Of a DNA stretch of 64,000 bases, positions 971 through 16,579 are shown piece after piece. Numbering within the stretch: position 1 is the first letter of the stretch; each line of letters opens with the position of its first letter. This DNA comes from Deltaproteobacteria bacterium (GTDB lineage: Bacteria > Myxococcota_A > Polyangia > Fen-1088), in contig JANRKS010000016.1 in assembly GCA_033763315.1 (NCBI GenBank), positions 96,001-160,000 of the forward strand, in the 5' to 3' direction. Under the pieces are notes generated by a model, which saw only the letters and a list, made by a program, of their open reading frames with translations, did not search any database and was not told where the DNA came from. The translations under genes were made by a program, and so were the position numbers.

Positions 971-1242
971 GTGCCGTGTGGTGGTGAGTTGCAACAACGT
1001 GTGATGGCGAAGCACTTGTTGGGCATGCTGCTGTGAGCACGACGAGTTTGCCGCCACGATCCTAATCGCGCCCGCTGTGCATTTGGATTCGGTTGTCACG
1101 CCTGCGCGTCTGCACGAATAAATGGCGTTAACTCGAACACCAATATTGGATTCGCCACACTTACGGTTCAGGATTTTAGTTTATCGACACTTCGAACTGA
1201 ACAAGAACGAGCCGATTCGCGACGGGTTTGGGAATGAGGCCG

Positions 1243-1271
1243 CTGCCAAAGTCGACGACATGGGATATCCT
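1243..1271 (+). promoter_or_regulatory. Putative Pc-like cassette promoter
   Basis: CTGCCA (1243-1248), 17-bp spacer, TATCCT (1266-1271), just upstream of the attI-like crossover; sigma70 resemblance only. Confidence 0.3.
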
Positions 1272-1274
1272 GAA

Positions 1275-1294
1275 CGGTACAAAACGAGTTGGCC
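1275..1294 (+). other. attI-like integron recombination site
   Basis: TACAAAACGAGTTGGCC resembles the attI1 simple site (CTAAAACAAAGTTRRRY). GTTGGCC pairs (1 mismatch) with GTCCAAC opening the first attC. No attC hairpin upstream. Confidence 0.55.
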
Positions 1295-1731
1295 AGACAC
1301 GTAACAAAGCCTGGAAGTTACGGCCATGAGCGGGCCGCGATCCAAATCGCGCTTTCTTTCTAAGCCGCTCAGGCAGAACCACACATCTACGAAGGCCACC
1401 TTGGGCAACGTCTGCTCACTGGCCTAACGGGCGTGTCGCACGCGCGAGCTCGGTACCGGTGAATCGTTGATGGTGTTGTGGCGCCGTCGGGCCAAGCACC
1501 TCTCCTTTCGTTGTGGCTCATGCTCGCAACCCGGGATGTACGCGCGGGCTCAGTAGGCGCTGCTCAGTGGTTGGCGACGGGCAACTGCGACTCGATACTC
1601 AACGACACGAAGGGGCACGCGCCGACGCAGGGTTGCTGCGAGTTGCGGCGCTGGCATATTGTCACCAGGCCACCAACACGACGATCGGAAAAGTACCGCG
1701 GCGTTGTCCCATCAGGGGATTCACCTCCGCT
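1289..1731 (+). other. Gene-less cassette 1
   Basis: Between the attI-like site and attC1; no convincing ORF; colinear homologue of cassette 2. Confidence 0.65.
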
Positions 1732-1857
1732 GTCCAACTGATCGTTTCAGCTGACAAAGAGCACAGGCCAACTAAAACCTAGACACGCCCGTGTGGTGCG
1801 AGCCAGAATGCGGTCTTGTGCCTCAGGGCCTTTGCAGCTGAACTGGGCACGTTGTGC
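1732..1857 (+). repeat. attC site 1
   Basis: GTCCAAC-tgatc-GTTTCAGC ... aaacctagacacg ... aatgcggtcttg ... GCTGAAC-tgggcac-GTTGTGC. Confidence 0.88.
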
Positions 1858-2294
1858 AGACACGCGGCTCAGTCTGGGAACAGGCTTGCATGAGCTGGCC
1901 GCGAAACAAATCGCGCGGTCTGTGTCAGTGGCTCAGGCAGAACCACCAAGCTGCGAAGGCTTTCTTGCGCAAGGCGGGTTCACAGGTCTAACGGGGCGTG
2001 CAGGACGCGCGGGCTCGGTACGGGTGCAAGGGCGGTGAAGTGGCAACGCCAGCCGGCCAACAAACGCCCTTGGTGTTGACTCGCCACCGGGCATGCACCA
2101 GTGCACGTTCGAGCTCAGTATGCGGGGGTCAGCGGGCCGCATGTGCCGTCGATGCTGCAAGCTCAACAACAAGAAGGGGCGCGCGGCAACAGGGTATTGC
2201 TGCGCGCAATGGCAGTGGCGCTGTGTGACCCGGCCACCGAGGTCGTGCTCGGGCATGTATCGGACCTCATCGCGCCCGTGTTTGTAGCCCCGCT
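1858..2294 (+). other. Gene-less cassette 2
   Basis: Bounded by GTTGTGC and GCACAAC; homologous to cassette 1 with no shared ORF. Confidence 0.7.
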
Positions 2295-2421
2295 GCACAA
2301 CCGCTCGTTGCATCTGACAAAGCGTGGGCGCCATCTAAAACCTAGACACGTCCGTGGCTTTCCAGCACCATTGGGGTTGTGCACGCTGCTGAGCTTTGCA
2401 GCTGAACTTCACACGTTAGCC
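2295..2421 (+). repeat. attC site 2
   Basis: GCACAAC-cgctc-GTTGCATC ... aaacctagacacg ... GCTGAAC-ttcacac-GTTAGCC. Confidence 0.88.
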
Positions 2422-2432
2422 GGACGAACGAG

Positions 2433-2912
2433 ATGCACGAGATTCAAGTACTGATCGGCGGGAAAGAAACGACGGAGGCGTTTGCGGCAACATGCAGCGA
2501 AGCGCTTCGCCGAGAGCTAACGTCCGAGCTATTTATGATTCCTCTCACCGAGGCGCTGGTTCTCCAAATGACTAGCCAAGCTCTGCGGCTGCCAGACCTA
2601 GAAGATCCTGATGAAGCGAAAGAGCTGGCTAGCGCCCTGCAACCTGTAGTGACGTCACTACTCGATGCAAATTTGGTTGGGCGTCTCGGGGTCGTTCTGA
2701 CTCAGTACTTTGGAGGCTCTGGAAATCAAGCGGCTTTGCTAGTCGAGAATGGAACTGTCAGCCATGGCCCCTTTGTAGGCGAAGGATCGATCAACAGGAT
2801 TCTTGCACGGCTCGGCGTATGCCGCGATGACAAAACCGGGCGCGACGAATTCGCGGTCGTCGGCTTAGACCGATGGCGTTCGAGCGATCAGATCATTGGC
2901 GGCGCCGGCTAA
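2433..2912 (+). CDS. Cassette-encoded hypothetical protein (159 aa)
   Basis: ATG 11 bp after attC2; stop TAA lies inside the GGCTAAC inverse core, as is typical of cassettes. Confidence 0.8.
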   Translation: MHEIQVLIGGKETTEAFAATCSEALRRELTSELFMIPLTEALVLQMTSQALRLPDLEDPDEAKELASALQPVVTSLLDANLVGRLGVVLTQYFGGSGNQAALLVENGTVSHGPFVGEGSINRILARLGVCRDDKTGRDEFAVVGLDRWRSSDQIIGGAG

Positions 2913-3035
2913 CAGATCGTTCCAGCTGACAGTGCCGCGAGCGTCACTTTGAACCTAGACATGGCAGCGGTGTGCGAGCGACAATGCGGTCTTGGTGCCT
3001 TGTTGGGCACCGCAGCTGAACTTTACACGTTAGCC
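2907..3035 (+). repeat. attC site 3
   Basis: GGCTAAC-agatc-GTTCCAGC ... ttgaacctagacatgg ... gcgagcgacaatgcggtcttgg ... GCTGAAC-tttacac-GTTAGCC. Confidence 0.92.
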
Positions 3036-3047
3036 GGACGGAGAACT

Positions 3048-3893
3048 ATGGACCCAGCTACAGGTCTCACAATTTTAGGAGGAGCCGTTGGATCGGCGAA
3101 GGTGCTCGAGAAGCTGCTTGGTCCAACAGCGGACTATCTTGGCTGCGGGTTCAAGGATTGGACAGAACGCGGATTCAAGAATGTTGGGCGAATTTTCGAA
3201 ATAGCTAAACTTCGCCTCGGCCCGAAGATTGATGACCCCGGAGGAGTTCCGCCGAGAGTGTTGAAGGAAGTTCTCAGCGAGGGGCCCTTCTGCGAGGATG
3301 AACTGTGGGCCGAATACTTTGGAGGGGTTCTAGCCTCGTCGCGCTCCGAAGTTGAGCGCGACGATCGCGGTGCCCGCTTCGCGTCGATAATCAGCCGATT
3401 GAGCACGTACCAAGTTCGTTGCCACTTTGTGCTCTATCGCCTTTTCAAGACGCTCTTTGACGGCGTCGAGGACACAGTGTCAACCGACGACGGACGTCGA
3501 TCCCTAGAAATGTTCGTACCGTTTGCGGCATTCGTGTCCGCTATGGAGCTGACAGGAGCAGAGAAGATCGATATCATTCTCAGCCACACAATAGTTGGGC
3601 TGGCTGGCGAGTCGCTCCTTGACCCCCAATACAAATTTGGTGGTGCCGAGTTCATCAAGACGAACGGTTTTCCGGGTGCGGCCCAGGATGGGATGCTCGT
3701 CCGCCCCTCGACGTTGGGGGCCGAACTCTTCCACTGGGCCCATGGACTCGGCAACGTTCATACCGGTAAATTTCTAGACCCGGCATGTACGTTTCCTTCG
3801 ACGATCATCGTGACTGTAATGCCCGGCGTATGCGCTTCACAGAGGCCGGACCGCAAATTGGATCAGCTGGTTAAGCCAAGTGGGCCCGCATGA
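3048..3893 (+). CDS. Cassette protein, Abi-alpha/DUF4393-like (tentative)
   Basis: True start MDPATGL after GGAG RBS. Segment PPRVLKEVL..EDELWAEYFGGVLASS..FASIISRLS parallels the Abi-alpha core by eye. Confidence 0.6.
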   Translation: MDPATGLTILGGAVGSAKVLEKLLGPTADYLGCGFKDWTERGFKNVGRIFEIAKLRLGPKIDDPGGVPPRVLKEVLSEGPFCEDELWAEYFGGVLASSRSEVERDDRGARFASIISRLSTYQVRCHFVLYRLFKTLFDGVEDTVSTDDGRRSLEMFVPFAAFVSAMELTGAEKIDIILSHTIVGLAGESLLDPQYKFGGAEFIKTNGFPGAAQDGMLVRPSTLGAELFHWAHGLGNVHTGKFLDPACTFPSTIIVTVMPGVCASQRPDRKLDQLVKPSGPA

Positions 3894-3905
3894 CCGGAAC
3901 GCGCC

Positions 3906-4035
3906 GGCTAACTCATCGTTCAAGTCTGACAGCGCCACGGACGCCATCTTGATCCTAGACACGTTAGTGGCTCGCGATCGACAATGCGGTCTTGCGGCGT
4001 TAGTAGGCGCTGCAGCTTAACTTTACACGTTAGAC
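3906..4035 (+). repeat. attC site 4
   Basis: GGCTAAC-tcatc-GTTCAAGT ... tgatcctagacacg ... cgacaatgcggtcttg ... GCTTAAC-tttacac-GTTAGAC. Confidence 0.92.
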
Positions 4036-4269
4036 GCACGGAGAGCTATGGACCCAGCAACAGGCCTAACAATTCTTGGTAGCGCAATCGGATCTGCGAA
4101 GGTGCTCGAAAAGTTGCTCGGTCCTACGGCGGATTATCTCGGCGCCGGACTTAAGGATTGGACGGAACGCAGCTTCAAGAATGTCGGCCGTATCGTTGAG
4201 AGAGCTAAGTTTCGGCTTGGCCCAAAGATAGATGAGCCTGGGCTTGACCCGTTTTCGCGGACAGTTGGG

Positions 4270-4739
4270 TTAAGCGGATCGTTTCTTCAAAGAATGTAGC
4301 AGCTCAAACTCGACGGGCGTTCGGTAGTTGATGGAAGAGTGACGCCGACGATAATTGTAGTTCGCGATGAATTGTTTCGCTGACAGTGTGCCAATGGCCG
4401 GCGTTTCGAGCGTGTCCGCATTGTGCATTTCCCGCTTGAGCGTGGCAAAGAAACTTTCTGCGACGGCATTGTCCCAGCAGTCGCCCTTGCGGCTCATACT
4501 GCACTCGATAGCTCCCTCACGTAGTGCCCTGCGGTAAGCATCGGCAGTGTACGTGCTGCCGCGGTCCGAGTGATGTACAAGGCCCGGCCCAGGCCTGCGT
4601 GATTGTATAGCCATTTCAAGAGCTGCGAGGGCAAGGTTGCAGTCCACGGTTTGGCTTGTCGCCCAGCCAACAATCCGCCGCGAAAACAGGTCCAAGATGA
4701 CTGCGAGATAAAGCCATCCCTGGGTTGTGTGTAGATAGG
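4270..4739 (-). CDS. IS3 transposase OrfB, 3' exon (DDE domain)
   Basis: (T)YLHTTQGWLYLAVILDLFSRRIVGW, HHSDRGSTY, DCWDNAVAESFFATLK. Confidence 0.93.
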
Positions 4740-6590
4740 GGTAAGTAGGCCGGGGCATTTCAGCCCCAGCCCCTCTCAGAACCGGACGTGAACCTCTCGG
4801 CTCATCCGGCTCCCATCATCGAACCGCCGGGATAGATCCCACGTTCCCAATGTACGAAGGATTTCGGAGCGACTGCGGCAATTCGCCCAAGCTCCTTAAT
4901 TGCTCGGCGTACGTGCCGAGCGAGGTGCTTGTACTTTCGCCGAAGCCACCGCACAAGGTATTCATTGACGTGCCGCCACAATGGCTTCAACGCCGACGCG
5001 TAGAACCGACCGTAGTAGTTAGCCCATCCACGAAGGATGGGATTAAACATGTTTGAGAGATCGTCCAGGGACTTGTCGCACTTCAGTTGAAGATGCCATC
5101 CGCGAATTTCTCGCCGCATCGCGCGGAGCGCATCACGGCTCACCCCGGGAGAAAAATTCACGTATAGACGGCCATACCTGTCCCGCGATCTTCGCGGGCG
5201 AAATGTATAACCGAGAAACGTGAATTGTATCGTTGGATATGCGCTCTGCCGATTGATGTCTTTGCAGTACGCTATCCGCGTTTTCTCTGGATGCAGTTCG
5301 AGTCCGCATTCCTTTAAGCGCTCTCCGATCATCCGCAACGCAAGCCGCGCCTGCTCTTCGCTCTTGCAGTGGACAACGCCGTCGTCTGCGTATCGGCAAA
5401 GTTGCACGCTTCGCAGCTCTCGGCGCATCCAAATATCAAGCGCGTAATGCAGAAACAGATTCGCAAGCAACGGGCTGACGACACCCCCTTGTGGGGTCCC
5501 TCGTGTGCGCGCCACCTGCGTTCCATCCTCGATCACCATCGGTGCCTTAAGCCATCTCTCGATGTACAAAAGGACCCAAGGTGTCTTGCAATGCTTGCGA
5601 ACGGCCCGGAGAAGCAGTTCGTGATCAATTGTGTCGAATAGGGCTTTGACGTCAAACTCGACGACCCAGTCATATTTCCAACTTCGCCGCCTAACCATTT
5701 TGATCGCATCCAAGGCAGAGCGCCCCGGACGGTACCCAAACGAATTGTCGTCGAAAATCGGCTCGAGCATTGGCTCAAGGACCATCTTGACCGCGGTTTG
5801 TGCGATCCGATCTGCAACCGTTGGTATCCCCAACATCCGCGTTCCACCCGTTCGTTTTGGGATCGACACGCTCTTAACCGGCGGCGGAAAGTAGCTGCCG
5901 GAGATCATGCGGTTCCAAATCTTATACAGGTTGTCACTTAGGTTTCTCTCAAATACTTCGATCGATTCGCCGTCTACCCCGGCAGATCCTCCTTTGGCCT
6001 TCACCGTCTGGAATGCCTTCCAGATCAGTTGTTTGGGAATTTCAAACGGCTTTGTCATGAGCCGACGCTCCTCCTGCTTGCGCAGTTGACGGCGGTGCAT
6101 GACGCGATGACGCGACCCCTTCGCTCCATCACCATTACAGTGACTTCCTCACTACTACGAGTCGCTCCGTCCCTTGGCTGCACATCAGTACTGTCGGCCT
6201 TGCGTTTTGCGCTTGTACCTTTCCCTTTACATTGCAGCCGAAGGTTCCTGCAGTTCAACATAGGAGCCCGAATCGCGCTGGCGCTGTCTCTATGCCGGAC
6301 GCCGCATGGCCAATAGACAGGCTCCCGCCATGCTGATCCTGGGCAACATCAACTCCCAGTTTCGACGTCATTTGGTTATTTCGACAATTGGACGACAGTT
6401 CACTTTTGTTCGCCTTCTTCGATTCACACCTGACGCCTTACGACGCCTTTTCCGCAACGCTCACGACCGGGGCTTTTGACCCAGGCCGCTTGCGGTGGTT
6501 TGCGACCTGCTCCTGTAAGCCGGTCGCGAGGGGCCAGTTAGATTTTTTTTTCTTACATCCCTCATCTCCTACGCTGCTTCTGCAGCACAC
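4740..6590 (-). mobile_element. Group II intron (class D/IIB3, RmInt1-like), 1851 nt
   Basis: 5' end GTGTGCTGCAGA. Domain V GAGCCGGATGAGCCGAGAGGTTCACGTCCGGTTC. 3' end CCTACTTACC. Removal restores OrfB WVTDI-T-YL in frame. Confidence 0.92.
4802..6058 (-). CDS. ltrA: Group II intron reverse transcriptase/maturase, no endonuclease domain
   Basis: GSAGVDG, LGIPTVADRIAQ, SFGYRPGRS, GTPQGGVVSPLLANLFLH, RYADD, FTFLG, X domain NPILRGWANYY. Confidence 0.95.
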   Translation of the reverse strand: MTKPFEIPKQLIWKAFQTVKAKGGSAGVDGESIEVFERNLSDNLYKIWNRMISGSYFPPPVKSVSIPKRTGGTRMLGIPTVADRIAQTAVKMVLEPMLEPIFDDNSFGYRPGRSALDAIKMVRRRSWKYDWVVEFDVKALFDTIDHELLLRAVRKHCKTPWVLLYIERWLKAPMVIEDGTQVARTRGTPQGGVVSPLLANLFLHYALDIWMRRELRSVQLCRYADDGVVHCKSEEQARLALRMIGERLKECGLELHPEKTRIAYCKDINRQSAYPTIQFTFLGYTFRPRRSRDRYGRLYVNFSPGVSRDALRAMRREIRGWHLQLKCDKSLDDLSNMFNPILRGWANYYGRFYASALKPLWRHVNEYLVRWLRRKYKHLARHVRRAIKELGRIAAVAPKSFVHWERGIYPGGSMMGAG

Positions 6591-6993
6591 TGATGTCCGT
6601 GACCCAGGCCCTGTTGGGACCCGCGGCTGTAAAGTCCCTCTGCAGAAGGTTGGGGGCGATAGGGTGCCCGTGTTTGGAATCTGTGGTCGCCTTGAATCGG
6701 CGTCGAGTGAGTGCTTTGAGCCCGGTTTGTCGCATCAATCGTGCGACGCGCTTACGTGCGACCCGTTGTCCGCTCGCCTTAAGGTCCGCGTGAATTCTAG
6801 GGCTTCCGTAGTTGTAACCGCTGGCCACATGCAGCGCATGAATGCGTCGCGCGAGTTCGGCATCACCTTTTGAGTGACGTGATTCTTTGCGCTGCACGCT
6901 CGCATAAAAGCCACTCGTCGAAACGCCCAGAAGCCTACAAAGCGCCGCCACGGGAAAGGCCACCCTCTGCTCTTGGATGAATGCAAACTTCAT
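6591..6993 (-). CDS. IS3 transposase OrfB, 5' exon
   Basis: LCRLLGVSTSGFY, YGSPRIHADL, KRVARLMR, PNLLQRDF..PNRAWVTDI; ATGA overlap with orfA. Confidence 0.93.
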
Positions 6994-7298
6994 GCATTCT
7001 CCTTCGCGAAGAAGGTGGCCGCACGTTTTAAAATCTCACGCTCCATGCGCAGTGTCTTGACCTCGCGGCGCAGGTGCGAAAGCTCTTCCTTCTCTGATGC
7101 TGTTAAGGCAACTGGTGTGTCCGCGCCCTGAGCGCCGCCGCTTTGCCTAAGCCACTTGCGTATGAGGCTGTCGGCGACATCGAGTTCTCGGGATGCCTCC
7201 GGAACCGTTTTGGCCCCGCTCTGTATCAATTGCACCACCTCCGCCTTGAACTGCCGCCCATGCGTGCGCCGCGGTTTTACTGCCTTCGATTTCCTCAT
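6990..7298 (-). CDS. IS3 transposase OrfA (HTH)
   Basis: FKAEVV..SRELDV..IRKW, leucine zipper LRREVKTLRMEREILKRAATFFAKE. Confidence 0.93.
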   Translation of the reverse strand: MRKSKAVKPRRTHGRQFKAEVVQLIQSGAKTVPEASRELDVADSLIRKWLRQSGGAQGADTPVALTASEKEELSHLRREVKTLRMEREILKRAATFFAKENA

Positions 7299-7988
7299 AT
7301 GGATACCTTTCTACGCTCTTTTCTCTGAGCGTGGGTGTCCACGAAAGCGGGTCAACCTCAGCCTGGGGGAATCCCTCCTCGAGTTGTCCACAAACTTCTT
7401 ACGGAAGGTCCTTTCATCGAGGACGAGGTTGGGGCTGAGTATTTCGGGGGAGTGCTCGCGTCCTCTAGGTCGGAATCATTTCGAGACGACCGCGCCAATT
7501 ATTACCTAGGGCAGATTAGCCGACTTTCATGCTACCAGTTGCGGGCACACTACGTCTTCTACGCCTGCTTCCAGCGCATTTATCTCGGGATCAAGCGGGA
7601 CCTTGGAAACTCGGATCACACAAGTCACGCTTACGTTTTCATTTCCATGTCTGCATTCTCAACCGCGATGAAATTCACCGAGAAAGAGGATCCCGCCAAA
7701 ATCATCGGCCATATCCTGTTTGGTCTCCACCGCGAAGGACTGATTTCGGCGTATGCGTCCGGAAACAAAGAAACAGTGGTTGGCATTGCAAGCACCGCAG
7801 CTTCTGATGGTGTCGCCTTTGTGTTAACGCCTGGAGGTGTTGAACTCTTTCTGTGGGCACACGGGCTGCAAGACTCGGATCTGAACGACATCATCACTGC
7901 CGATTCCCCTTTCGAACCGTTCGACGACGTACAGCTCCCGCCGCCCACTGAGTACTACGGTCCGAGCGGGCCGAATTCGCGAGGCGGC

Positions 7989-8117
7989 GCCTAACTATGC
8001 GTTCAAGCTGCCAAAGCTGCGGAGGTCACCTTGAACCTAGACACGGCAACGCTATGCCAGCAAAAATGCGGTCTTGCGCGTTTGTGAGCTTTGCAGCTTA
8101 ACGGCGCCACGTTAGTC
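7989..8117 (+). repeat. attC site 5
   Basis: GCCTAAC-tatgc-GTTCAAGC ... ttgaacctagacacg ... aatgcggtcttg ... GCTTAAC-ggcgccac-GTTAGTC. Confidence 0.92.
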
Positions 8118-8131
8118 AGACACGGAAGCAA

Positions 8132-8734
8132 ATGCACCCAGACACGAGAGAAGTTGCTGAGCATATGCGGGAATTTGGACTCAATGTGATCGCGCGGGCG
8201 ATTTACGATGTGACCTTTGCGGAGTTCAGTAGGCCATTCGCCCACGCTTTGGCTGTGATACATGCCGCACACGGTGCCGAGATTGTTCTGAAGGCGCGGA
8301 TTGCTGAGGAGCACCCGCTTCTCATATTCAAGAAACTTCCACAGTCATCTTCAACGGAAGAATCACTGACGATTGCGGAGCTTTTTGAGTTTGGCCGAAG
8401 TGTTGACTACGACGACCTTCCGGAACTGCTTTGGGCGACCACAGGCATTCGAATCGAAAGAAGGGACAGGTACCAGGAGTTCGGCCGCTTGCGAAACAAG
8501 ATCATGCATTTTGCCGTTCCGGAGATGGATCATTCTCACGAGGTACTGTCATTCTGTATTGAGGTCCTTGAGCCATTGGTTTTTGCGTTCTGGCAAGAGT
8601 CTGCGGTGCCACTTGCGGCCCACTGGGACGAAGTGATTCTGTCGGATGGCTATCTCGACGACCAGCTAACCGCCCACGTAATTGACGTTCCGCTGCACGT
8701 TCGACAAATCCTCGACGAAGCCAAAGAATCGTAG
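8132..8734 (+). CDS. Cassette protein with HEPN-like signature
   Basis: AHGAEIVLKARI..HPLLIF and an Rx4H motif RNKIMH. Confidence 0.65.
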   Translation: MHPDTREVAEHMREFGLNVIARAIYDVTFAEFSRPFAHALAVIHAAHGAEIVLKARIAEEHPLLIFKKLPQSSSTEESLTIAELFEFGRSVDYDDLPELLWATTGIRIERRDRYQEFGRLRNKIMHFAVPEMDHSHEVLSFCIEVLEPLVFAFWQESAVPLAAHWDEVILSDGYLDDQLTAHVIDVPLHVRQILDEAKES

Positions 8735-8744
8735 GGCGTCTGCT

Positions 8745-8874
8745 GGCTAACCGGGCCTTGAAGACAGACAAAGCGCGGAGCACACTTTGAACCTACACAT
8801 GGCAGCGTGATGCGAGCGACAATGGTGTCTCGGCCATTGATGAGCTTTGCGGGTTAACGCCAAGCACGTTAGCC
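8745..8874 (+). repeat. attC site 6
   Basis: GGCTAAC ... ctttgaacctacacatgg ... gcgagcgacaatgg ... GGTTAAC-gccaagcac-GTTAGCC. Confidence 0.88.
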
Positions 8875-8901
8875 GTACTGTGGCCTCTGTCAGGAGCTGA
8901 T

Positions 8902-9444
8902 TTGTCGGGAGGTAAGAAAAGCACCCGCTTGGATGTCATTGCGGCGATCCTCGCCGTCAATCTGGCCGGGAGTTGTCACCACGTACGGACGTCGTCTGCT
9001 TCATGTCACGACCGGCAGCGAAATCATGTTGGTGGGAAGGTCGAAGATATGGAGAGCAATACACGTTCAGCATGCATCGACGTGCGCGAGAACGATGACG
9101 TCGGACCCGTCCTCGATGCAATTGACGAACCAAGCCGCGAGCCTCAGACAGAGGTCGAGGTCTGCTGGGAATCACGCTGCGAGTGCATCCTCGCACCCAA
9201 ACGGATAAAGGAGGACGCAGCACAAAAAGTCTTCAGTGTCGTTCGCAGCAGGACCAAAGATAGAGTTGTAGTGATCCTTGGCCGATTCGGATTGAGAGAA
9301 GGACGACCTTGTCCACTTGGTGAACTAGATGTCTTGACGGTGACGCCCGACGGAACCAAGGGGTTCACCTACACCTTGGTAAAGAGCGATGGCGAATGGA
9401 AGCTCCATTCCATAGATGCGTTGTTCGCGAAAACAGACGGCTAA
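8902..9444 (+). CDS. Cassette hypothetical protein, possible lipoprotein (start uncertain)
   Basis: Fills the cassette; stop inside GGCTAAC; hydrophobic stretch followed by LAGSC. Confidence 0.65.
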   Translation: MSGGKKSTRLDVIAAILAVNLAGSCHHVRTSSASCHDRQRNHVGGKVEDMESNTRSACIDVRENDDVGPVLDAIDEPSREPQTEVEVCWESRCECILAPKRIKEDAAQKVFSVVRSRTKDRVVVILGRFGLREGRPCPLGELDVLTVTPDGTKGFTYTLVKSDGEWKLHSIDALFAKTDG

Positions 9445-9572
9445 CCCAGGCTTGAAGCTGCCGAAGCCCACTGCCTCGGTGGAGAACCTGAACGCACGGA
9501 GGCTCTTGAGGCGCTGAGGGGGTTGTGAGACTCTTGCGAAGGGCTTCGCAGCTTAAGCCGAGCACGTTATGC
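9439..9572 (+). repeat. attC site 7 (divergent interior)
   Basis: GGCTAAC-ccagg-CTTGAAGCTGCCGAAGCCC ... GGGCTTCGCAGCTTAAG-ccgagcac-GTTATGC. Confidence 0.85.
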
Positions 9573-9597
9573 GTACAGTGCGTGTTTCGTTCGAAGG

Positions 9598-9628
9598 TTG
9601 CTAGCTGTGTATATTGAGGTAATATACA
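9598..9628 (+). promoter_or_regulatory. TA promoter with overlapping inverted-repeat operator
   Basis: TTGCTA-16 bp-TAATAT; perfect 8-bp IR TGTATATT(9608-9615)-gaggt-AATATACA(9621-9628); GTG start at 9632 suggests a leaderless transcript. Confidence 0.6.
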
Positions 9629-9631
9629 GCA

Positions 9632-9949
9632 GTGGCGAGGTTTCCGGATGAGCTTACGGCGTGTACAGGATTTGAATGGGATGAGGGCAATGCGGACAAG
9701 AATTGGGAGTTGCACCAGGTCTCGCGCGGCGAGGCCGAGGATGCGTTCTTCAATCGGCCCTTTGTCATCGCTCCCGATTTCCGACACTCCAACAAGGAGC
9801 CTCGGTACGCGGCATTGGGGTTCACTTCTGCTGGTCGCAAGCTGACGGTTATCTTCACCGTGCGACGAACGCTGATCCGGATCATTTCGGTGCGAGACAT
9901 GAGCAGACAAGAAAGGAGGGTCTATGACCAAGCGAGCAGCAAAAAGTAA
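9632..9949 (+). CDS. brnT: BrnT-family toxin (DUF497)
   Basis: GFEWDEGNADKNWELH, EPRYAALG, IRIISVRDMSRQERRVY. Confidence 0.9.
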   Translation: MARFPDELTACTGFEWDEGNADKNWELHQVSRGEAEDAFFNRPFVIAPDFRHSNKEPRYAALGFTSAGRKLTVIFTVRRTLIRIISVRDMSRQERRVYDQASSKK

Positions 9950-10220
9950 GAGACCGATCCCAATCTTCGCGAACGAAGATGACGAACGACAGTTTTGGTC
10001 AAAAAATGATGCGAGCGCCTTCTTTGATTGGGAACACTCAGTTCAAGTTGCGATGCCGGACCTGAAACCCACCACGGCATCGATTTCCTTACGCCTGCCT
10101 GTTTCCATGCTTGAAGAACTCAAGGCATTGGCCAACAAACGCGACGTACCATATCAATCGTTGATGAAGGTGTATCTGTCTCAGCAGATCATGCGCGAGC
10201 GGAACAAGAAGGCATCATGA
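9924..10220 (+). CDS. BrnA/CopG-type RHH antitoxin
   Basis: IPIFANEDDERQFW..D, ISLRLP..LK.LA..RDVPYQSLMK; overlaps the toxin gene. Confidence 0.88.
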   Translation: MTKRAAKSKRPIPIFANEDDERQFWSKNDASAFFDWEHSVQVAMPDLKPTTASISLRLPVSMLEELKALANKRDVPYQSLMKVYLSQQIMRERNKKAS

Positions 10221-10221
10221 C

Positions 10222-10336
10222 GCATAACAAGGCGTTCAAGGCTGACAGTGCCGCGAGCATCACTTTGAACCTAGGCATGGTAGTGGGATGCGGGCGACAA
10301 TGCGGTTTTGGTGCCGCACTGGGCTTCGCAAGTTAA
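10222..10336 (+). repeat. attC site 8, right end deleted
   Basis: GCATAAC-aaggc-GTTCAAGG ... ctttgaacctaggcatgg ... gcgacaatgcgg ... GGGCTTCGCAAGTTAA, then runs straight into coding sequence. Confidence 0.8.
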
Positions 10337-10447
10337 GGTTACCGCGCCATTCGGCTCAGTGATGCATACAGGGCCATTTACATCGAGCGAAGCGACGGGG
10401 CGGTCGAGGCCGTCTACGTTGAAGAGGTGAACAAGCATGACTACTAA
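10337..10447 (+). pseudogene. C-terminal remnant of a HigB/RelE-type toxin
   Basis: Reads GYRAIRLSDAYRAIYIERSDGAVEAVYVEEVNKHDY*, has no start codon and overlaps the HTH antitoxin start. Confidence 0.75.
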
Positions 10448-10763
10448 GCGGGCAAAGCGAGCTCAAGGGAACGCGTCAGGATACCTCGTGAAGCTTATGA
10501 AAGGGCCGCTGACTCTTGGCGACGCGCTGTCCGCCATCCGCGAGGCCGAAGAAATGAGCCTCTCCGAGTTCGCAGCGGAGCTTGGCGTGTCGCGTTCCCA
10601 TCTTTGTGACATCGAACAGGGTCGCAGAGCTGTCAGTCCAGAGCGCGCCGCCCGGTTAGCTCAGGCACTCAAACAGCATGAAGCTCAGTTCGTGCGCCTT
10701 GCTTTGCAGGACCAAGTGCGTGCGGCGGGCTTGAACTTGAAGGTGGATGTCCACGCCGCATGA
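10437..10763 (+). CDS. HigA-type XRE HTH antitoxin
   Basis: LTLGDAL.AIR...MS..EFA..LGVSRSHLCDIEQGRRAVSPERAARLA..L..FVRLALQD. Confidence 0.85.
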   Translation: MTTKRAKRAQGNASGYLVKLMKGPLTLGDALSAIREAEEMSLSEFAAELGVSRSHLCDIEQGRRAVSPERAARLAQALKQHEAQFVRLALQDQVRAAGLNLKVDVHAA

Positions 10764-10783
10764 CCGTCTGAGGAGGTGCGTCC

Positions 10784-10918
10784 GCCGAACCCGGCGTTGC
10801 ACCCGCCAAACCCGCGCGAGTCAAGGCAAAACCTAGACACGCCAGCGGCCGGTATGCACCATAGGGGATGTGGACTCCACCGATATGGCTTTGCATGTGA
10901 ACGCCACACACGTTAGCC
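10784..10918 (+). repeat. attC site 9
   Basis: GCCGAAC-ccggc-GTTGCACC ... aaacctagacacg ... TGTGAAC-gccacacac-GTTAGCC. Confidence 0.8.
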
Positions 10919-10929
10919 AGTCATAACAC

Positions 10930-11223
10930 ATGAAACCGGCACCGCTACAGATAGGAGGGGCCAGGGTAGTGGCATACACAGCCATCGACCATCGGCATCG
11001 TGCCACTGGACGTACGAAACAGATCGTCGACGGCGTGCAGGTCGGCCCAGCCGCAGGTCTTGCGATCTGCCAATACGAGAACGACGTGGCCTTCTACCTA
11101 TTCGGGTGCGACGTCAATTGGAAGAGCGTTACCGACACCTGGCATCAAAGTATCGGCGATGCGAGGGACCAAGCTGAGTTCGAGTATGCAGGATCCTCTC
11201 AGACATGGGTTGATGTCGGCTAA
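10930..11223 (+). CDS. Cassette hypothetical protein (97 aa)
   Basis: Fills the cassette; stop in GGCTAAC; GLAICQY..FYLFGCD..W..VTDTWH..A..QAEFEY. Confidence 0.8.
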   Translation: MKPAPLQIGGARVVAYTAIDHRHRATGRTKQIVDGVQVGPAAGLAICQYENDVAFYLFGCDVNWKSVTDTWHQSIGDARDQAEFEYAGSSQTWVDVG

Positions 11224-11229
11224 CTCATT

Positions 11230-11554
11230 GTGGGGTGTCTTGATCGCTGGCGACTGTCCCGTGTGTCCGGTTTGGCGCCGCTGTTGCAGTCGCGTCGGTG
11301 CAGACTGGTAAACTGTTCTTCGCTTGTCCTGCTTGTGGGTGCGCCTGGATAAACCGCCGGACGGTTCTATCGATTCGGTGGACCCACCCTTTCGCTTTGC
11401 ACCTGCAGGCTTTCGGCTTGCAGTGCCCGGAGATTTCGAGCGCGCGAACCTGCTATTGCTGATTGTGCGCACTGAGCCCTTTGGCGGAATCCATGATGAT
11501 TTTGAAAGAGTTGACGGCTTCGACCGCGGCGGCCGCTGTATGTTGACCTCCTAA
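11230..11554 (+). pseudogene. Frameshifted cassette gene fragment (CPVC..CPACG) fused to a truncated attC
   Basis: attC stops after GGCTAACTCAT; joining frames gives CPVCP..LFFACPACGCAW..DSVDPP. Confidence 0.45.
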
Positions 11555-11675
11555 GCCGACAAACAAAGCCCGCAGACGCCTCCGCAAACCTAGACAGTCA
11601 AGATCTGTACAGGCACCATAGGTGTCGTGGACGTTCGCAATATGCGCTTTGCAGGTTAACGCCAGCACGTTATCC
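11550..11675 (+). repeat. attC site, degenerate left arm
   Basis: aaacctagac core; right arm GCTTTGCAGGTTAAC-gccagcac-GTTATCC. Confidence 0.7.
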
Positions 11676-11684
11676 AGACTGAAC

Positions 11685-12338
11685 ATGAAGTCACTTTCTG
11701 ATGGTCTAGAAGACGACGTTCCGAGCCCGATCGACTTGCGGGATCCGTCGGACGCCAACGCTTGGGTTGCCGCGTCTGATCGCACGCGTCCATGGCGGGC
11801 TGAGGTTCGGATGGCGATCGCGGAGCTGTTGCGCGGCACCAATCCGGCGCCGCGCCGCGTGCTGGAGCTCGGCTCTGGGCCCGGCCTGCTGGCAGACGCG
11901 ATTTTGAAAGTCTGCGACTTGGATAACTACACGCTATTCGATTTCTCGCTTCCGATGCTCGACATGAGTCGGAAGAAGCTTGCTAGTCACCCATCGGCCG
12001 AGTTCGTTTGTGGTGATTTCAAGCATAAGGATTGGACCGCATCGCTCGTTCCCTCTTTTGACGTTGTTGTTGCGATGCAGGCTGTCCACGAAATCCGCCA
12101 CAAGCGTCACGTGCCTGAACTGTACCGACAAAGCTGTAGTGTTCTGCGACCAGGTGGTTTGCTGGTGGTGTGCGATCACACGCCGCCGGCGCCGAACAGT
12201 CCTTTGGCTAGGCTACACTCTACCGAAGACGAGCAACTTGCCGCGTTTGCCGCCGCTGGTTTCGTGGACGTCAGAACGCATCTCAATTTAAAAGGGTTGT
12301 ATGTTTGTACGGGGCTAAGGCCATACGACGCTGGCTAA
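11685..12338 (+). CDS. Class I SAM-dependent methyltransferase cassette
   Basis: VLELGSGPG, LFDFS..ML, FDVVVAMQAVH, LRPGG; stop in GGCTAAC. Confidence 0.9.
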   Translation: MKSLSDGLEDDVPSPIDLRDPSDANAWVAASDRTRPWRAEVRMAIAELLRGTNPAPRRVLELGSGPGLLADAILKVCDLDNYTLFDFSLPMLDMSRKKLASHPSAEFVCGDFKHKDWTASLVPSFDVVVAMQAVHEIRHKRHVPELYRQSCSVLRPGGLLVVCDHTPPAPNSPLARLHSTEDEQLAAFAAAGFVDVRTHLNLKGLYVCTGLRPYDAG

Positions 12339-12455
12339 CCATACTTTGCCAATGACAAAGTATGGAGGTCTTGAAGCTAGACATGGCAGCATGATGCCGG
12401 CACCATCTGGTTATGGCGGTCAGTGAGCTTTGCAGCTGAACGTCACAAGTTAGCC
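12333..12455 (+). repeat. attC site
   Basis: GGCTAAC ... ttgaagctagacatggcagc ... GCTTTGCAGCTGAAC-gtcacaa-GTTAGCC. Confidence 0.85.
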
Positions 12456-12468
12456 AAACTGGCCACAT

Positions 12469-12551
12469 ATGAGGTTTCGAATACCCTTACTCGCCGCCGC
12501 CTGTGCTGTTGTTCGGGCTGTATGCCACCGTCATGGGGCGCGGGAGCTCTG
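12469..12551 (+). pseudogene. 5' stub of a second copy of the alpha/beta hydrolase cassette
   Basis: Near-identical to 16651-16735 (ctcgccgccgcctgtgctgttgtt..gggctgtatgccaccgtcatggggcgcggg). Confidence 0.8.
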
Positions 12552-12578
12552 GACAGCACGGGCAGGCTGGTATCTCTG

Positions 12579-14114
12579 CTACGGCGTTGCCCGCCCGTAA
12601 AGGCTGGGCAAGAGACGTACGGCCTCGATCTGTCCGTGCAAAAGCGGGTCTTGGAACACGCACCGTGCCTCATCGAGCTGAGGGCACAGGGGTGGCACGA
12701 TGACGTCTCGCAACTCGCTGATGAGCTCGTTCGTCATTGGCCGGCCTGCGCCTTGCGTATGTCGAGCATGAATAAAACGCGAGAGCAGCAAGGGAGTAAT
12801 CCAGGACGTGGTGGTCTGAGTGATCGGAAAAATGTCGACCCCGTATTCATCCACTTGGAGCAGTGGGGTGTCGTTGTATGGAAATGGTCTTTGCGCCAGC
12901 ACGCCGCTGTTTAGATAAACGTCCACGTTTGATCGTGCAGGCCACGCTGAATCGACTGGGAAAGTGCCCCGTCCCGAAGGGTCGAGCCCGGAGGCCAAAG
13001 CCGTAAAGTAGCCGGCGCGCATTCGATTTGAGTACTGCGGCGCTGGCCAATCATAGGGAAAGGATTCTCTGTCGCTGGCATTGATCGCAGCATTCGCCGC
13101 AAAGACGCCTGGCGTACCGAAGAGGCTTGTCATGATGGGTTCGTACGCTCCCAGCCGTGCGTCCAGGACGTCGGTCCCCGCCAAAGGGACACTGCAGTGC
13201 CGCTGCCAATCCGATTGCACGCTCGCCCTCGTCTGCCCCGCGCTGAAGTTTACGAAGTGCACTCCTAGTTCCTTCATCACGCGGCGAAGATCGTCCGCCA
13301 CCCGCCGGGCAAGCGTGCGCAGGCGAACCGTTGCCTCGGGATCGCCAGAGGCGCAGAAGTCGGTTGGGGCAAGCTTCGCTAGACTGATCTGATCCACCAA
13401 CACCAGCCCGTGGTGAGGGTTCGCTTCGACCAACATCGAAAGCACCTGGCTGCCATGTCCTGTGGCGTCCGCCCCGTGCCGTCCAAAGGCGTTGACGATC
13501 GGCTCGCGTAACGAACCTAGGCTCTTCGCTGAAATAAACTGGGCCGTAGCGAAGCGGGTAAGAACCTCGTGCAAGGCAACGGGAACCCGCCACACCGCCC
13601 GCACAGCCTCAAAACGTCCTGACGGCGAGGCACGCAGGAATGCCTTGATCCGATTCTGGTAGCGAATGGCAAACGTCGGCAGAGTGGAAAAGTCGTCGAC
13701 CACGAGGATGGCCTCGCGGGTGTCTTGAGCAATGGAGAAGCGCGTCGGGGAATACTCGAAGTCGCCCCAGTCACACATCGAAACATCGGCACGGCGAAAG
13801 CACGTCTCTGCGCTAAGACGTTCAATGGCTCCAGCAATCGCCGTACCAAGCGAATCGGGCGGGGGCCCTCCGTCTGCGTTCGCGTCGACTCCCGAGCCAT
13901 CAGGCAGCCACAGCCTTCCGTCGATCTCTTCGCCTCCGTCAGCGCGGTTCAGCGCATCGAGCGCCGCGTCTACGACACCGGGCCCGGTCTGATCGTCGCA
14001 AGCACAGACGCCGATTGCCGCCGCAAAGCCGAAGCTCAGAAGCCATTTGGTAGCTGGGACAAGCTTGGCCGTTTGCGAAGGGGCTGTTTTTCGCTGCTGG
14101 TAAATGTGGCCCAT
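12579..14114 (-). CDS. Exported or lipoprotein hypothetical, divergent subtilase-like
   Basis: Signal ending GVCAC; ordered motifs ILVVDD, GHGSQV, FVNFSAG, TTSWITP. Confidence 0.6.
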   Translation of the reverse strand: MGHIYQQRKTAPSQTAKLVPATKWLLSFGFAAAIGVCACDDQTGPGVVDAALDALNRADGGEEIDGRLWLPDGSGVDANADGGPPPDSLGTAIAGAIERLSAETCFRRADVSMCDWGDFEYSPTRFSIAQDTREAILVVDDFSTLPTFAIRYQNRIKAFLRASPSGRFEAVRAVWRVPVALHEVLTRFATAQFISAKSLGSLREPIVNAFGRHGADATGHGSQVLSMLVEANPHHGLVLVDQISLAKLAPTDFCASGDPEATVRLRTLARRVADDLRRVMKELGVHFVNFSAGQTRASVQSDWQRHCSVPLAGTDVLDARLGAYEPIMTSLFGTPGVFAANAAINASDRESFPYDWPAPQYSNRMRAGYFTALASGLDPSGRGTFPVDSAWPARSNVDVYLNSGVLAQRPFPYNDTPLLQVDEYGVDIFPITQTTTSWITPLLLSRFIHARHTQGAGRPMTNELISELRDVIVPPLCPQLDEARCVFQDPLLHGQIEAVRLLPSLYGRATP

Positions 14115-14466
14115 CGTTTCCCCTGCTTAAGTTTGTTATTCGATGAATATAGTGGCCATCACACGCACCGGGAGTCACTCGCGTCGTTTCCGTAGCCCAA
14201 GGGGGTGCGCGCAGATTGCAGCGACGGTTGTCGGTTCACGAGTGCGGGCAGCGAGGCTCTCCAAATTCGGCGATGGCAGTTGCTACAACCGCGGTTGTTC
14301 CATGTGCTCGCGAATTTCCGAGGCTGCGAACCCGTTGTGTCCCTTCCGCGATGGCGGCGCTGATCGTTTCTGCATGTTCATGCAAGCCAAGATTTCGGGT
14401 ATTCTTGCGTAACCCACGCCTCAAGGTTGAGCCGGTCCTTCCATTGTGACTAGCCGGACTGATACG

Positions 14467-14820
14467 ATGACAAATCCTATGGCCCAAAGCTGGTTGGATG
14501 CTGCGGAGGACCTCGGTATTCGCGTTGTGCACCCCTTTCGGTTCACCACCGCGTCGGCTGTCGCGGCAGAGACAGTCGGTGTCTTCTTACCTGACTTCGG
14601 ATCTGAAGATGGCATGCTTCTAACGTGCCGCTTCGATCCCGACGAAATGTCCGAACTCGTTGACGACACCCCCTATCGCACTTCAGGTCTCAGTCCTCGC
14701 TACTACGAACCTTACTCGCGCACTCGGTTCATACAGACACTTTCCGATTGGGGGTGGTTCGGGCCCGAAGGCCAACGGCCGCATTGGTACGATCCAGATT
14801 GGCGCAACAGATCAGGTTAG
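14467..14820 (+). CDS. Cassette hypothetical protein (117 aa)
   Basis: W..AA.DLGIRV..PF..LPDFGS..G..F...L.DWGWFG..P.W; followed by an attC. Confidence 0.75.
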   Translation: MTNPMAQSWLDAAEDLGIRVVHPFRFTTASAVAAETVGVFLPDFGSEDGMLLTCRFDPDEMSELVDDTPYRTSGLSPRYYEPYSRTRFIQTLSDWGWFGPEGQRPHWYDPDWRNRSG

Positions 14821-14842
14821 AGCGAGATGCCGCTTTGACGCT

Positions 14843-14978
14843 GACGAACTGATCATTCTGATCATTGCAGCTGACAATGCATGGAGGTCACTTTGAACAT
14901 AGACACGGGGGTGGTATGCGGGCGACAATCTGACCTTAAGGCTTGCTGGGCTTTGCGGCTGAATTTTTCATGTTGGGC
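14843..14978 (+). repeat. attC site, degenerate
   Basis: TTGCAGCTGAC ... ctttgaacatagacacg ... gggcgacaat ... GCTGAAT-ttttcat-GTTGGGC. Confidence 0.75.
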
Positions 14979-15055
14979 AGACAATCGAGATGCTCGAAAC
15001 AGTCGATCAGATTGAGTCGTCGCGACTTCAGAAGCCGGTGGACGTATTACACGGT

Positions 15056-15144
15056 GACATGGCAGTGATGTGCAAGCGACAATGCGGTCTTGGTGCCTTA
15101 GGCGTGCACCTCTGGGCACTGTAGCTGAACTTCACACGTTAGCC
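15056..15144 (+). repeat. attC site, left arm deleted
   Basis: gacatggcag..gcgacaatgcggtcttggtgcc ... GCTGAAC-ttcacac-GTTAGCC, preceded by a ~65-bp gene stub from ATG 14990. Confidence 0.78.
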
Positions 15145-15160
15145 GGACTCGAGGATCATT

Positions 15161-15682
15161 GTGGTGACGGAAAACCGCGTCAGTTCGCGATCTCAAGCGG
15201 GCTCCGAACCGCCGGAGTGTGCAGCCGCTTTCCTGTTAGCGATCCCTGCTCAGGTGCTGGCGTTGTCGTTGGTGTGGCTTTACATGAGTCATCCACACCG
15301 CGCTTCTGTGGTGCTTCCTCGCTGGTGGGGTCTCTGTCCGTACACCCCAGTGTTCGTCCTACCCTTCTGGTCGGCGGTGTACCGGTACAAGCTAAATCGC
15401 TGGCCGCTGATCAGTCCCCTCTTACGCCGTATTGGAGTGGTACTTCTCATCATCGTCCCCTACCTGGGCGTGCTGAGTACTCCGCGAGGGCGGCGGCCCG
15501 CGCCCGAAGTATGGCTGATCTGCATCCCCGTCGCTGCGAATCTCGCCGCGCTTGCTGTCCTTGACGGCGCTGGCCGAACAAACTTCCGCCGGTCCATGAG
15601 ATATCTGTTCTATTTTTTGGGAGGTTTTCTGTTCGCAGCGTTGGTGGGGGAATGTGCCGGAGTGGGTGCCGCCCTGGGCTGA
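15161..15682 (+). CDS. Cassette membrane protein
   Basis: About 5 hydrophobic segments; followed by the truncated attC GGCTAACTCATCGTT at 15711. Confidence 0.65.
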   Translation: MVTENRVSSRSQAGSEPPECAAAFLLAIPAQVLALSLVWLYMSHPHRASVVLPRWWGLCPYTPVFVLPFWSAVYRYKLNRWPLISPLLRRIGVVLLIIVPYLGVLSTPRGRRPAPEVWLICIPVAANLAALAVLDGAGRTNFRRSMRYLFYFLGGFLFAALVGECAGVGAALG

Positions 15683-15840
15683 CGGCTATCTCGAAACGAC
15701 TGGCCGTGCCGGCTAACTCATCGTTTGGGGGAACCAATGTACTTTCCTGATCTTGGAACAAAGACGCAGATTTACCTATGTGAGCAAGTGGGGGCAATCG
15801 GTGTTCGCCTCTGAACCACGAGTGACCTCGGACACAAACG

Positions 15841-16413: not shown

Positions 16414-16444
16414 ATCTGCCGCGGCAGTTCACAAGCCATTGGCG

Positions 16445-16579
16445 CCGCCCATGCAGGCTTGCAGCTGCCAAAGCCGGGAGCGCTTTCGAAAAATCAGATG
16501 CACCTGTGGTACTTGAAGCGCCAAAGCGGTTGTGCAACCCTGCCGAAGGGCGTTGCAGATGAGGCCGCACACGTTGGAC
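16445..16579 (+). repeat. attC site, degenerate
   Basis: GCTTGCAGCTGCCAAAGC ... GTTGCAGATGAG-gccgcacac-GTTGGAC. Confidence 0.6.

Follow-up and report, generated by a model that had tools for sequence, protein, structure and literature searches.

The window analysed here (G000:C16:96001-160000) is a 64-kb stretch of the 7.6-Mb genome of a Deltaproteobacteria bacterium, and close to its beginning lies an integron cassette array that opens with two cassettes without a gene, cas1 (1288-1738, plus strand) and cas2 (1851-2301, plus strand). Judged by sequence comparison, cas1 and cas2 represent two lineages of a single family of integron cassettes that are genuine and mobile and carry no gene. An earlier note on this DNA had suspected that they might represent an undescribed non-coding cassette family, and this was borne out insofar as the family could not be matched to anything described: we found no coding signal and no match in Pfam, protein databases or Rfam. 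The literature was searched by words only, and such searches cannot show that a sequence family is undescribed. The cargo of the cassettes, i.e. the part ahead of the recombination site attC, encodes no protein, and the family probably acts through nucleotide signals, either as cis-regulatory DNA or as RNA. Tentatively, we favour the idea that the cargo is a module controlling transcription of the cassette array in cis, a reading that we regard as possible rather than probable.

The boundaries proposed for both cassettes turned out to be exact, with GTT at 1288-1290 and 1851-1853, AAC at 1736-1738 and 2299-2301, and a cargo of 451 nt in each case. The lineage 1 cassette cas1 extends from the R' core GTTGGCC to R'' GTCCAAC, and the lineage 2 cassette cas2 from R' GTTGTGC to R'' GCACAAC, so that R'' of each cassette is complementary to its own first bases. 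In the attC site of cas1 (1739-1853, plus strand; R' GTT at 1851) L'' TTCAGCTGAC pairs with L' CAGCTGAA, and these arms are ordinary; the attC site of cas2 (2302-2417, plus strand) is 85% identical to that of a second lineage 2 copy elsewhere in the genome. The complementarity between R'' and the cassette start together with the ordinary L''/L' arms identifies cas1 and cas2 as true cassettes. All features expected of integron cassettes were found, i.e. the R' core at the start (G↓TTRRRY), a 3' attC site with imperfect inverted repeats, and an array with integrase and attI in the same genome, with the integrase gene intI located on another contig. Mobility is indicated by the presence of four copies at three genomic loci with different neighbours and by further junctions in metagenome contigs. 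The description of the two cassettes as colinear and strongly diverged also holds, as 284 of 449 aligned positions are identical (63.3%) with only four single-base gaps, and the shared blocks quoted in the earlier note are real.

A search of the genome with a profile of both cassettes recovered exactly four full-length copies (E values of 1e-135 to 2e-108) and no other credible match. In addition to cas1 and cas2, lineage 1 is represented by a copy on contig C1 (C1:310879-311329; 89.5% identical to cas1) and lineage 2 by a copy on contig C27 (C27:701-250, minus strand; 90.0% identical to cas2), and the two lineages are 61-63% identical to each other. The constancy of cassette length and of the distance between two repeated sequence boxes, which had been the starting point for assuming a function, is nearly but not strictly kept in the two further copies: the cargo comprises 451 nt in cas1, cas2 and the C1 copy and 452 nt in the C27 copy, and the boxes are spaced by 100 nt in cas1, cas2 and the C27 copy and by 97 nt in the C1 copy, which has lost 3 nt and gained 3 nt relative to cas1. 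The near-constant length (451, 451, 451 and 452 nt) despite such insertions and deletions (indels) may be due to chance. The C1 copy is the first cassette behind its leader, and lineage 1 thus occupies the first position in both arrays without intI; the C27 copy is located between attC sites, after other cassettes. A weak nhmmer match at C40:3875-4000 consisted only of a related attC site and approximately 25-36 nt before R'' and was rejected as a family member. Behind the attC sites of both the C1 copy (C1:311455-311586) and the C27 copy (C27:1-132) we noted an identical stretch (100%) of 132 nt, at which both contigs end; this shared stretch is an unassembled repeat, a cassette or an insertion element.

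The statement that the two cassettes share no reading frame is correct in substance, as no coding signal was detected in any of the six frames; taken literally it has to be qualified, since a 33-codon frame from ATG to TAA is found at the same position in all four copies, which however fails as a protein. Substitutions between close copies are spread over the three phases (19/15/13 and 16/16/13). When the lineages are compared, 10-17 synonymous versus 83-90 non-synonymous codon changes are counted in each of the six frames, and within the lineages the counts range from 5 synonymous versus 31 non-synonymous through 14 versus 23. The neighbouring paralogous protein cassettes starting from 3048 and 4048, which served as positive control for coding, show 31 synonymous versus 18 non-synonymous changes in their true frame, with differences of 14/9/41 over the codon positions. 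A conserved open reading frame (ORF) with synonymous bias among homologues, the outcome named beforehand as speaking against a non-coding family, was not seen. None of six ORFs of cas1 and cas2 had a match in Pfam, and the 133-codon minus-strand and the 117-codon plus-strand ORF of cas2 had no relative in a word-indexed protein collection. The cargo is not formally free of ORFs over 210 bp, as it contains chance ORFs of 76-133 codons. The control cassettes (3048-3893 and 4048-4299) are themselves a tandem pair, 72.5% identical over the first 249 nt and with synonymous bias, and the ORF of the first one has no match in Pfam. Related cassettes in tandem are thus a feature of this array and not peculiar to cas1 and cas2.

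The 33-codon frame (1326-1427 in cas1, 1890-1991 in cas2; plus strand) deserves separate consideration, because its ATG and TAA occupy identical columns of the alignment in each of the four copies, no indel lies inside it and it represents the best conserved part of the element. Nevertheless, cas1 and cas2 share only 17 of 33 residues in this frame despite being identical at 77 of 102 nt (75%), with 2 synonymous versus 16 non-synonymous changed codons and differences by codon position of 11/9/5. In addition, the C27 copy contains an in-frame stop at codon 14, and in metagenome variants the start codon reads ACG (place 1891 in cas2; five contigs of run X1, one of X2 and two of X3, see below). 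With no purifying selection on the frame, a stop in one of four copies and the start lost in variants, we rejected a small-protein gene, and it is highly improbable that the function of the cassettes resides in such a protein.

A structured non-coding RNA (ncRNA), which had been among the initial suggestions, did not emerge from the folding analyses: consensus folding was no better than for column-shuffled alignments, and a check for covariation yielded only a weak excess on the plus strand. At the gathering score, Rfam detected only a group II intron (4740-6559) in the whole window and nothing on the cassettes. With a threshold of E=10, four matches at chance level (E values of 4.6-8.7) were obtained for 900-2600, two of them inside the cargo with 17 and 16 bits versus gathering scores of 40-54.5, and membership in a known Rfam family was rejected. 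Fold z-scores of the single sequences were ordinary (-0.42 and -0.82), the plus-strand consensus energy calculated by RNAalifold was -76.4 kcal/mol compared with -71.1 +/- 7.4 kcal/mol for column-shuffled alignments (15 of 60 shuffles were as good), the structure conservation index was 0.40 versus 0.39 in shuffles, and three sub-regions analysed on both strands had z-scores from -0.71 to +1.39. In both lineages, a high probability of pairing is confined to the R'/R'' terminal stem and a 5-bp hairpin (alignment columns 51-55/60-64). Close copies do not show an excess of compensated substitution pairs either (13 and 10 versus 18.5 and 13.1 in simulations).

Some of the comparisons across all four copies gave weak signals in favour of an RNA fold. 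Ten plus-strand helices of at least 5 bp are kept in all copies and show covariation, versus 3.4 +/- 2.1 in column-shuffled alignments (2 of 200 reach this number), with six such helices on the minus strand, and RNAalifold identified 17 fully compensated pairs versus 9.8 +/- 3.1 in shuffles (reached by 1 of 60). Kept helices at columns 161-167/260-266 and 166-171/409-414 contain A/G changes opposite U, which are workable only on the plus strand, and the two boxes can pair over 7 bp (GAGCUCG with CGRGCUC), also with A/G changes opposite U. One further pair count was set aside as circular, its structure having been derived from the same four sequences. With effectively two independent lineages, the power of these RNA tests is low either way. 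In summary, a weak excess of plus-strand compensatory pairs remains, and a conserved RNA fold is not supported.

Conservation is concentrated in short stretches. Between cas1 and cas2 there are eight identical runs of at least 8 bases versus 3.7 expected from shuffled match/mismatch strings (P=0.0115), and identity amounts to 77% in alignment columns 38-175 and 68% in columns 311-390 compared with 51-58% elsewhere (51% in columns 176-310). The blocks are present in all four copies in fixed register, with only four 1-nt indels between lineages that differ at 37% of sites. The comparison of the two lineages shows a pattern of apparent selection on short nucleotide blocks in fixed register, with neither a reading frame nor a stable RNA fold as its object. 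The lineage 1 cargo is 89.5% identical across its two loci, compared with 58% for the leaders upstream and 59% for the attC sites downstream, and its first 190 nt contain 5 differences versus 42 in the remainder. This high identity of the cargo reflects either stronger constraint than on the flanks or exchange by gene conversion. Substitutions in lineage 2 are no rarer in columns shared by the two lineages than elsewhere (odds ratio 0.95, P=1.0). With a G+C content of 61.4% and 64.1%, the two cargos are richer in G+C than the next two cassettes (56.0%) and the genome (60.6%). We also observed that two rather dissimilar attC sites (C1:311330-311457 versus 1739-1853 in the window) follow the lineage 1 cargo; they are 59% identical with 13 gap columns and have the same R'' and R' cores. 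A simple cassette move would carry the attC site along and thus does not explain this arrangement.

The most conspicuous repeated element is a 16-nt box, which occurs twice per cassette, 100 nt apart, at 1440/1540 and 2005/2105, in exact agreement with the initial observation. Allowing up to two mismatches, the pattern ACGYKCGRGCTCRGTA has four matches in the window, all of them exact and at these positions, with a chance expectation of 0.36 and none of 100 shuffles reaching four matches. A slightly looser form has eight exact matches in the whole genome, all eight inside the four family copies. There is thus no exact site of a genome-wide box regulon outside the family; sites with one and two mismatches number 4 and 61, respectively. 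Box 1 of cas1 (1440-1455, plus strand; ACGCGCGAGCTCGGTA) has at its core the 8-bp palindrome CGAGCTCG, which is perfect in two of the eight boxes and 1-2 positions off in the others, and is followed after 100 nt by box 2 (1540-1555, plus strand; ACGCGCGGGCTCAGTA). The corresponding boxes of cas2 are ACGCGCGGGCTCGGTA (2005-2020, plus strand) and, again 100 nt further on, ACGTTCGAGCTCAGTA (2105-2120, plus strand). In both lineages, box 1 and box 2 have their own fixed differences (GCTCGGTAC versus GCTCAGTA). The boxes sit within two direct repeats of approximately 28 nt, and no internal duplication of the cargo was found beyond them. Adjoining SacI and KpnI sites (GAGCTC GGTACC) are present in box 1 of cas1 (1447-1458) and in the C1 and C27 copies; cas2 lacks both (GGGCTC, GGTACG). 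The order of these sites resembles that in common cloning polylinkers; being so short, the stretch is no indication of vector sequence.

Candidate signals for transcription were found mainly in lineage 1 and in the attC sites. In lineage 1, both in the window (1336-1361, plus strand) and on C1, a terminator-like hairpin (CGCGAT-CCAA-ATCGCG) with a T-rich tail is located near the 5' end, corresponding to alignment columns 51-55/60-64; lineage 2 keeps the hairpin without the T-tract, and no terminator was reported in a scan of the C27 copy. A weak promoter-like sequence TTGCTG-18-TATTGT (1633-1662, plus strand), recognized by eye and below the threshold of our scan, is likewise restricted to lineage 1, as the -10 element is replaced by CTGTGT or CTGTGC in lineage 2. 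Outside the cargo, the attC site of cas1 contains a promoter-like TAGACA-18-CAGAAT (1780-1809, plus strand) directed outward and located approximately 40 nt upstream of cas2. The conserved, sigma-70-like pattern TAGACA-N18-(G/C)A(C/G)AAT, pointing into the next cassette, is present in the centre of 11 of the 33 attC-like sites of the genome, including those located directly (approximately 40 nt) upstream of both lineage 2 copies; a second example in the window is found at 2956-2985. If these sites were active, cassettes would bring or receive their own promoter together with the recombination site.

The array begins downstream of uvrA, whose 3' end closes at 970, and contains no intI; 13 attC-like sites are located in the window (1732 to 16578), and the 33 sites found genome-wide are distributed over seven contigs. 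The cassettes are preceded by an attI-like leader (1107-1287, plus strand), an orphan without adjacent intI that ends in GGATATCnTGAACGGTACAA....GTT, the cassette insertion point. This leader is homologous to C27:4471-4290 (72% identity), directly downstream of intI, and to C1:310698-310878 (58% identity), and all three leaders finish in GGATATCnTGAACGGTACAA....GTT. The single integron integrase of the genome is encoded at C27:4470-5411 (TIGR02249; 441.6 bits, cut-off 265), in the same orientation as its cassettes. Given the homology of their leaders to the region behind intI, the arrays of the window and of C1 are integrase-less arrays that have kept an attI-like leader, and by this evidence the array of the window counts as an integrase-less cluster of attC sites with an attI remnant. 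The designation of cas1 and cas2 as attI-proximal can therefore be maintained on the basis of leader homology, with the reservation that the array itself lacks intI, and their position as the newest and best expressed cassettes would rest on an attI-like leader without adjacent integrase. Several observations on the integrase region can be added. The location of intI and cassettes on the same strand of C27 corresponds to the inverted layout of Treponema integrons. The window and C1 arrays open with a copy of only the last approximately 180 nt behind the catalytic domain of intI, without integrase, and the integrase ORF on C27 continues through the leader for 42 further codons. Directly behind attI, C27:2133-4279 contains a 319-codon tyrosine-recombinase-like ORF with a TIGR02249 match below the cut-off, followed by a 404-codon ORF, and probably represents an inserted mobile element rather than a cassette.

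Searches of other genomes, in which the genome sets were samples of larger groups, recovered no further member of the family. In BLAST searches with the cargo, among 60 relatives, only the two congeneric genomes had matches, and these were restricted to attC parts; no match came from the remaining 88 genomes of the family, which with its 89 genomes makes up the whole order; one 43-nt match in a G+C-rich ORF, not confirmed by nhmmer, was found among 400 other genomes of the class; and 17 of 400 other genomes of the phylum contained 21-58-nt matches with E values of 4e-4 to 1e-2, which we took as chance. No match was obtained with blastn in plasmid and phage collections. Exact two-block scans were equally negative, as none of 22 loci in genome_contigs and none of 9 in metagenome_contigs was confirmed by nhmmer with the family profile, and of the 0 and 4 loci found in two pattern scans of viral_contigs none of the four was a family member. 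In contrast to these genome sets, Logan contigs of public sequencing runs contain variants at 80-99% identity. Seven such runs are listed, none of them an RNA run, and 95 contigs from four of them were compared with the window. The family was found in 55 records of run X1 (both lineages and the leader), 12 records of X2 (wastewater; lineage 2), 27 records of X3 (soil; lineage 2) and one record of X5 (lake water; 3 differences over 182 nt), and cas2 variants in that identity range occur in all four runs. The studies behind these runs differ (wastewater, soil, lake water and one without label), and up to seven different contigs cover one place in single metagenomes. Junctions seen in metagenome contigs include an array without cas2 and, in X3 and X1, a lineage 2 attC site followed again by a lineage 2 start. 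Within the species genomes covered by the searches the family is thus rare, while it is diversified in the environment.

How might these cassettes act? As a module for transcription control, the cargo would be read as a set of nucleic-acid signals acting in cis on the array. Candidate parts would be the boxes as protein-binding sites and, in lineage 1, the terminator-like hairpin at the 5' end together with the weak promoter at the 3' end. The family would then be a counterpart of the 'promoter cassettes' of Vibrio and Treponema integrons, and it would fit that both arrays headed by lineage 1 seem to have lost the upstream intI and whatever promoter came with it. We prefer this explanation because of the precedents among gene-less cassettes, the first position of lineage 1 and the semi-palindromic boxes. 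There are, however, a number of observations that weigh against it. No sigma-70-like promoter passed a consensus scan inside any of the four copies, and the promoter recognized by eye and the terminator T-tract are found in lineage 1 only, so that they cannot explain the blocks common to both lineages. The cargo is rich in G+C, whereas the promoter cassettes of Vibrio are AT-rich, and conservation is strongest in its 5' third and not at the 3' end, where one would look for a promoter serving the cassettes downstream. Moreover, if the promoter-like sites in one third of the attC sites (11 of 33) work, a promoter cassette would be less needed. No protein is known to bind the candidate box, which has no other exact match in the genome, and a lineage 1 start follows an attC site in run X1, indicating that the first position is not obligatory. 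Finally, the contrast between the similar lineage 1 cargos and their diverged flanks might have arisen by gene conversion instead of constraint.

Alternatively, the cargo could be a plus-strand ncRNA gene, transcribed from the promoter-like site in the preceding attC site (lineage 2) or from the leader (lineage 1), a possibility that we consider real but doubtful. The blocks would then serve for recognition or as seeds in single-stranded form, or make tertiary contacts, and base pairing between the two boxes would be feasible. Block conservation in fixed register with few indels, a G+C content above that of the surroundings, the surplus of covarying plus-strand helices and compensated pairs, the A/G changes opposite U and the position of both lineage 2 copies approximately 40 nt downstream of a TAGACA-18-(C/G)A(G/C)AAT motif are all consistent with an RNA, and an integron-borne small RNA (sRNA) cassette, sRNA-Xcc1, reportedly exists as a precedent. 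These observations have to be balanced against the lack of an Rfam family, the ordinary fold energies of single sequences, consensus and sub-regions, a structure conservation index as in shuffles, the restriction of shared pairing to the terminal stem and one 5-bp hairpin, and fewer compensated pairs between close copies than simulated; two independent lineages give all of this low power in either direction. It is unlikely, on the other hand, that the cargo is primarily a protein-binding DNA platform and not a promoter, with boxes and blocks that recruit or titrate a DNA-binding protein as a decoy, in a nucleoprotein complex or to modulate recombination or array stability. The palindromic core CGAGCTCG, perfect in two boxes, the box-specific differences kept in both lineages and the block register with almost no indels would suit such a platform, and adjacent members (cas1-cas2 and the joints of lineage 2 attC sites with lineage 2 starts in X3 and X1) would raise the dosage of sites. 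Yet there is no candidate binding protein in or next to the cassettes, whose neighbours differ between loci, the spacing is 97 instead of 100 nt in one copy, the 84 nt between the boxes are the least conserved part (51% identity), and contig joints that go back to the same lineage can be assembly effects of repeated attC sites. Rather improbable, too, is the view that the cassettes represent the remains of a decayed gene or captured junk, devoid of function and maintained and duplicated passively, in which the blocks result from short-patch gene conversion or from mutation at uneven rates. Degenerated genes do occur among the gene-less cassettes of Vibrio (PMC11014356); the skew of 5 versus 42 differences in the lineage 1 pair is typical of gene conversion, lineage 2 substitutions do not spare conserved columns, and tandem paralogous cassettes are common in the array, e.g. 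those at 3048 and 4048. Passive decay is hard to reconcile, though, with the lack of any residual coding signal, of Pfam matches for six ORFs and of protein relatives for two, with lineages 37% apart that are still colinear and carry clustered blocks in all four copies, with several variants coexisting per metagenome and occurring in runs of different studies, and with a cargo far better conserved than its flanks. Beyond the action in cis that we prefer, it is conceivable, and in our view no better than a tentative proposal, that this is an undescribed, environmentally widespread mobile non-coding family with a role of its own as a functional RNA or nucleoprotein platform. If true, this would imply regulation in trans, protein titration or a defence-related decoy and not a mere source of promoters.

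The remainder of the array contains a nested insertion (4029-8116), in which an IS3-family insertion sequence interrupts, at approximately 4300, a cassette (ORF from 4048) that is a paralogue of its predecessor. The parts of this element are all located on the minus strand (orfA, 6990-7298; HTH_21 part, 6562-6993; rve part, 4270-4758), and its transposase is itself split by the group II intron (Rfam matches at 4740-4814 and 6428-6559; reverse transcriptase (RT)/maturase ORF, 4802-6100). Near or just past the last attC-like site (16459-16578) there are three ORFs (15841-16413, 16624-17496 and 17439-17963) encoding a GNAT acetyltransferase, an alpha/beta hydrolase and a protein with a strong match to the Arr-ms rifampin ADP-ribosyltransferase family (E=3.4e-41).

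Gene-less cassettes make up a sizeable and poorly understood share of integron arrays. To our knowledge, promoter activity in AT-rich cassettes of Vibrio and Treponema is the sole function shown for them so far. The family described here is a clean test case because the base composition of a G+C-rich host makes the chance occurrence of promoter-like sequence less likely; the colinearity of lineages 37% apart, a cargo better conserved than its own recombination site and the occurrence in several habitats add to its value in this respect. If the blocks are operator, terminator or promoter signals, arrays would recruit dedicated regulatory modules, including arrays without an integrase, and if an RNA is made, a long non-coding RNA would be added to the cassette pool of integrons.

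Conserved non-coding elements in cassette-like surroundings have been found before. The DUF1874 motif and attC-like multistem motifs are located between ORFs in cassette-like arrays, and they illustrate how hard it is to separate a reading as single-stranded DNA from one as RNA (Weinberg et al., NAR 2017, PMC5737381). The DUF1874 motif is probably an attC-type site, whereas the cassettes described here have ordinary attC sites apart from the conserved element, which is the cargo. The integron cassette carrying sRNA-Xcc1 of Xanthomonas, which we liken to our family by description only, contains a trans-acting non-coding RNA, and the 451-nt cargo is far longer than a typical sRNA. More similar are the ORF-less cassettes of Treponema integrons from an oral metagenome, which act as promoters and for which a first position of the promoter cassette was considered (Tansirichaiya et al., Sci Rep 2019, PMC6557892). 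Treponema integrons also share the unusual same-strand integrase with this genome; their cassettes have another host and another base composition, and the likeness drawn here is one of description only.

The promoter cassettes of the Vibrionaceae superintegron are likewise gene-less and located in sense orientation in chromosomal arrays, where a regulation of neighbouring cassettes is plausible; in the work of Blanco et al. (NAR 2024, PMC11014356), most of 29 gene-less Vibrio cassettes tested were active as promoters on the sense strand. They are similar in size, with 491-666 bp in total and 335-515 bp outside attC compared with approximately 565 bp and a cargo of 451 bp here, and the rule applied there, no ORF over 210 bp, would exclude our cassettes because of their chance ORFs of 76-133 codons. 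In contrast to the Vibrio cassettes, cas1 and cas2 have no consensus promoter common to both lineages, are known from sequence alone and are rich in G+C relative to their neighbours instead of AT-rich; they also form a conserved, diversified family with blocks in fixed register and a repeated box. With these differences, cas1 and cas2 belong to the known kind of gene-less integron cassettes, and their closest counterparts are those of Vibrio and Treponema.

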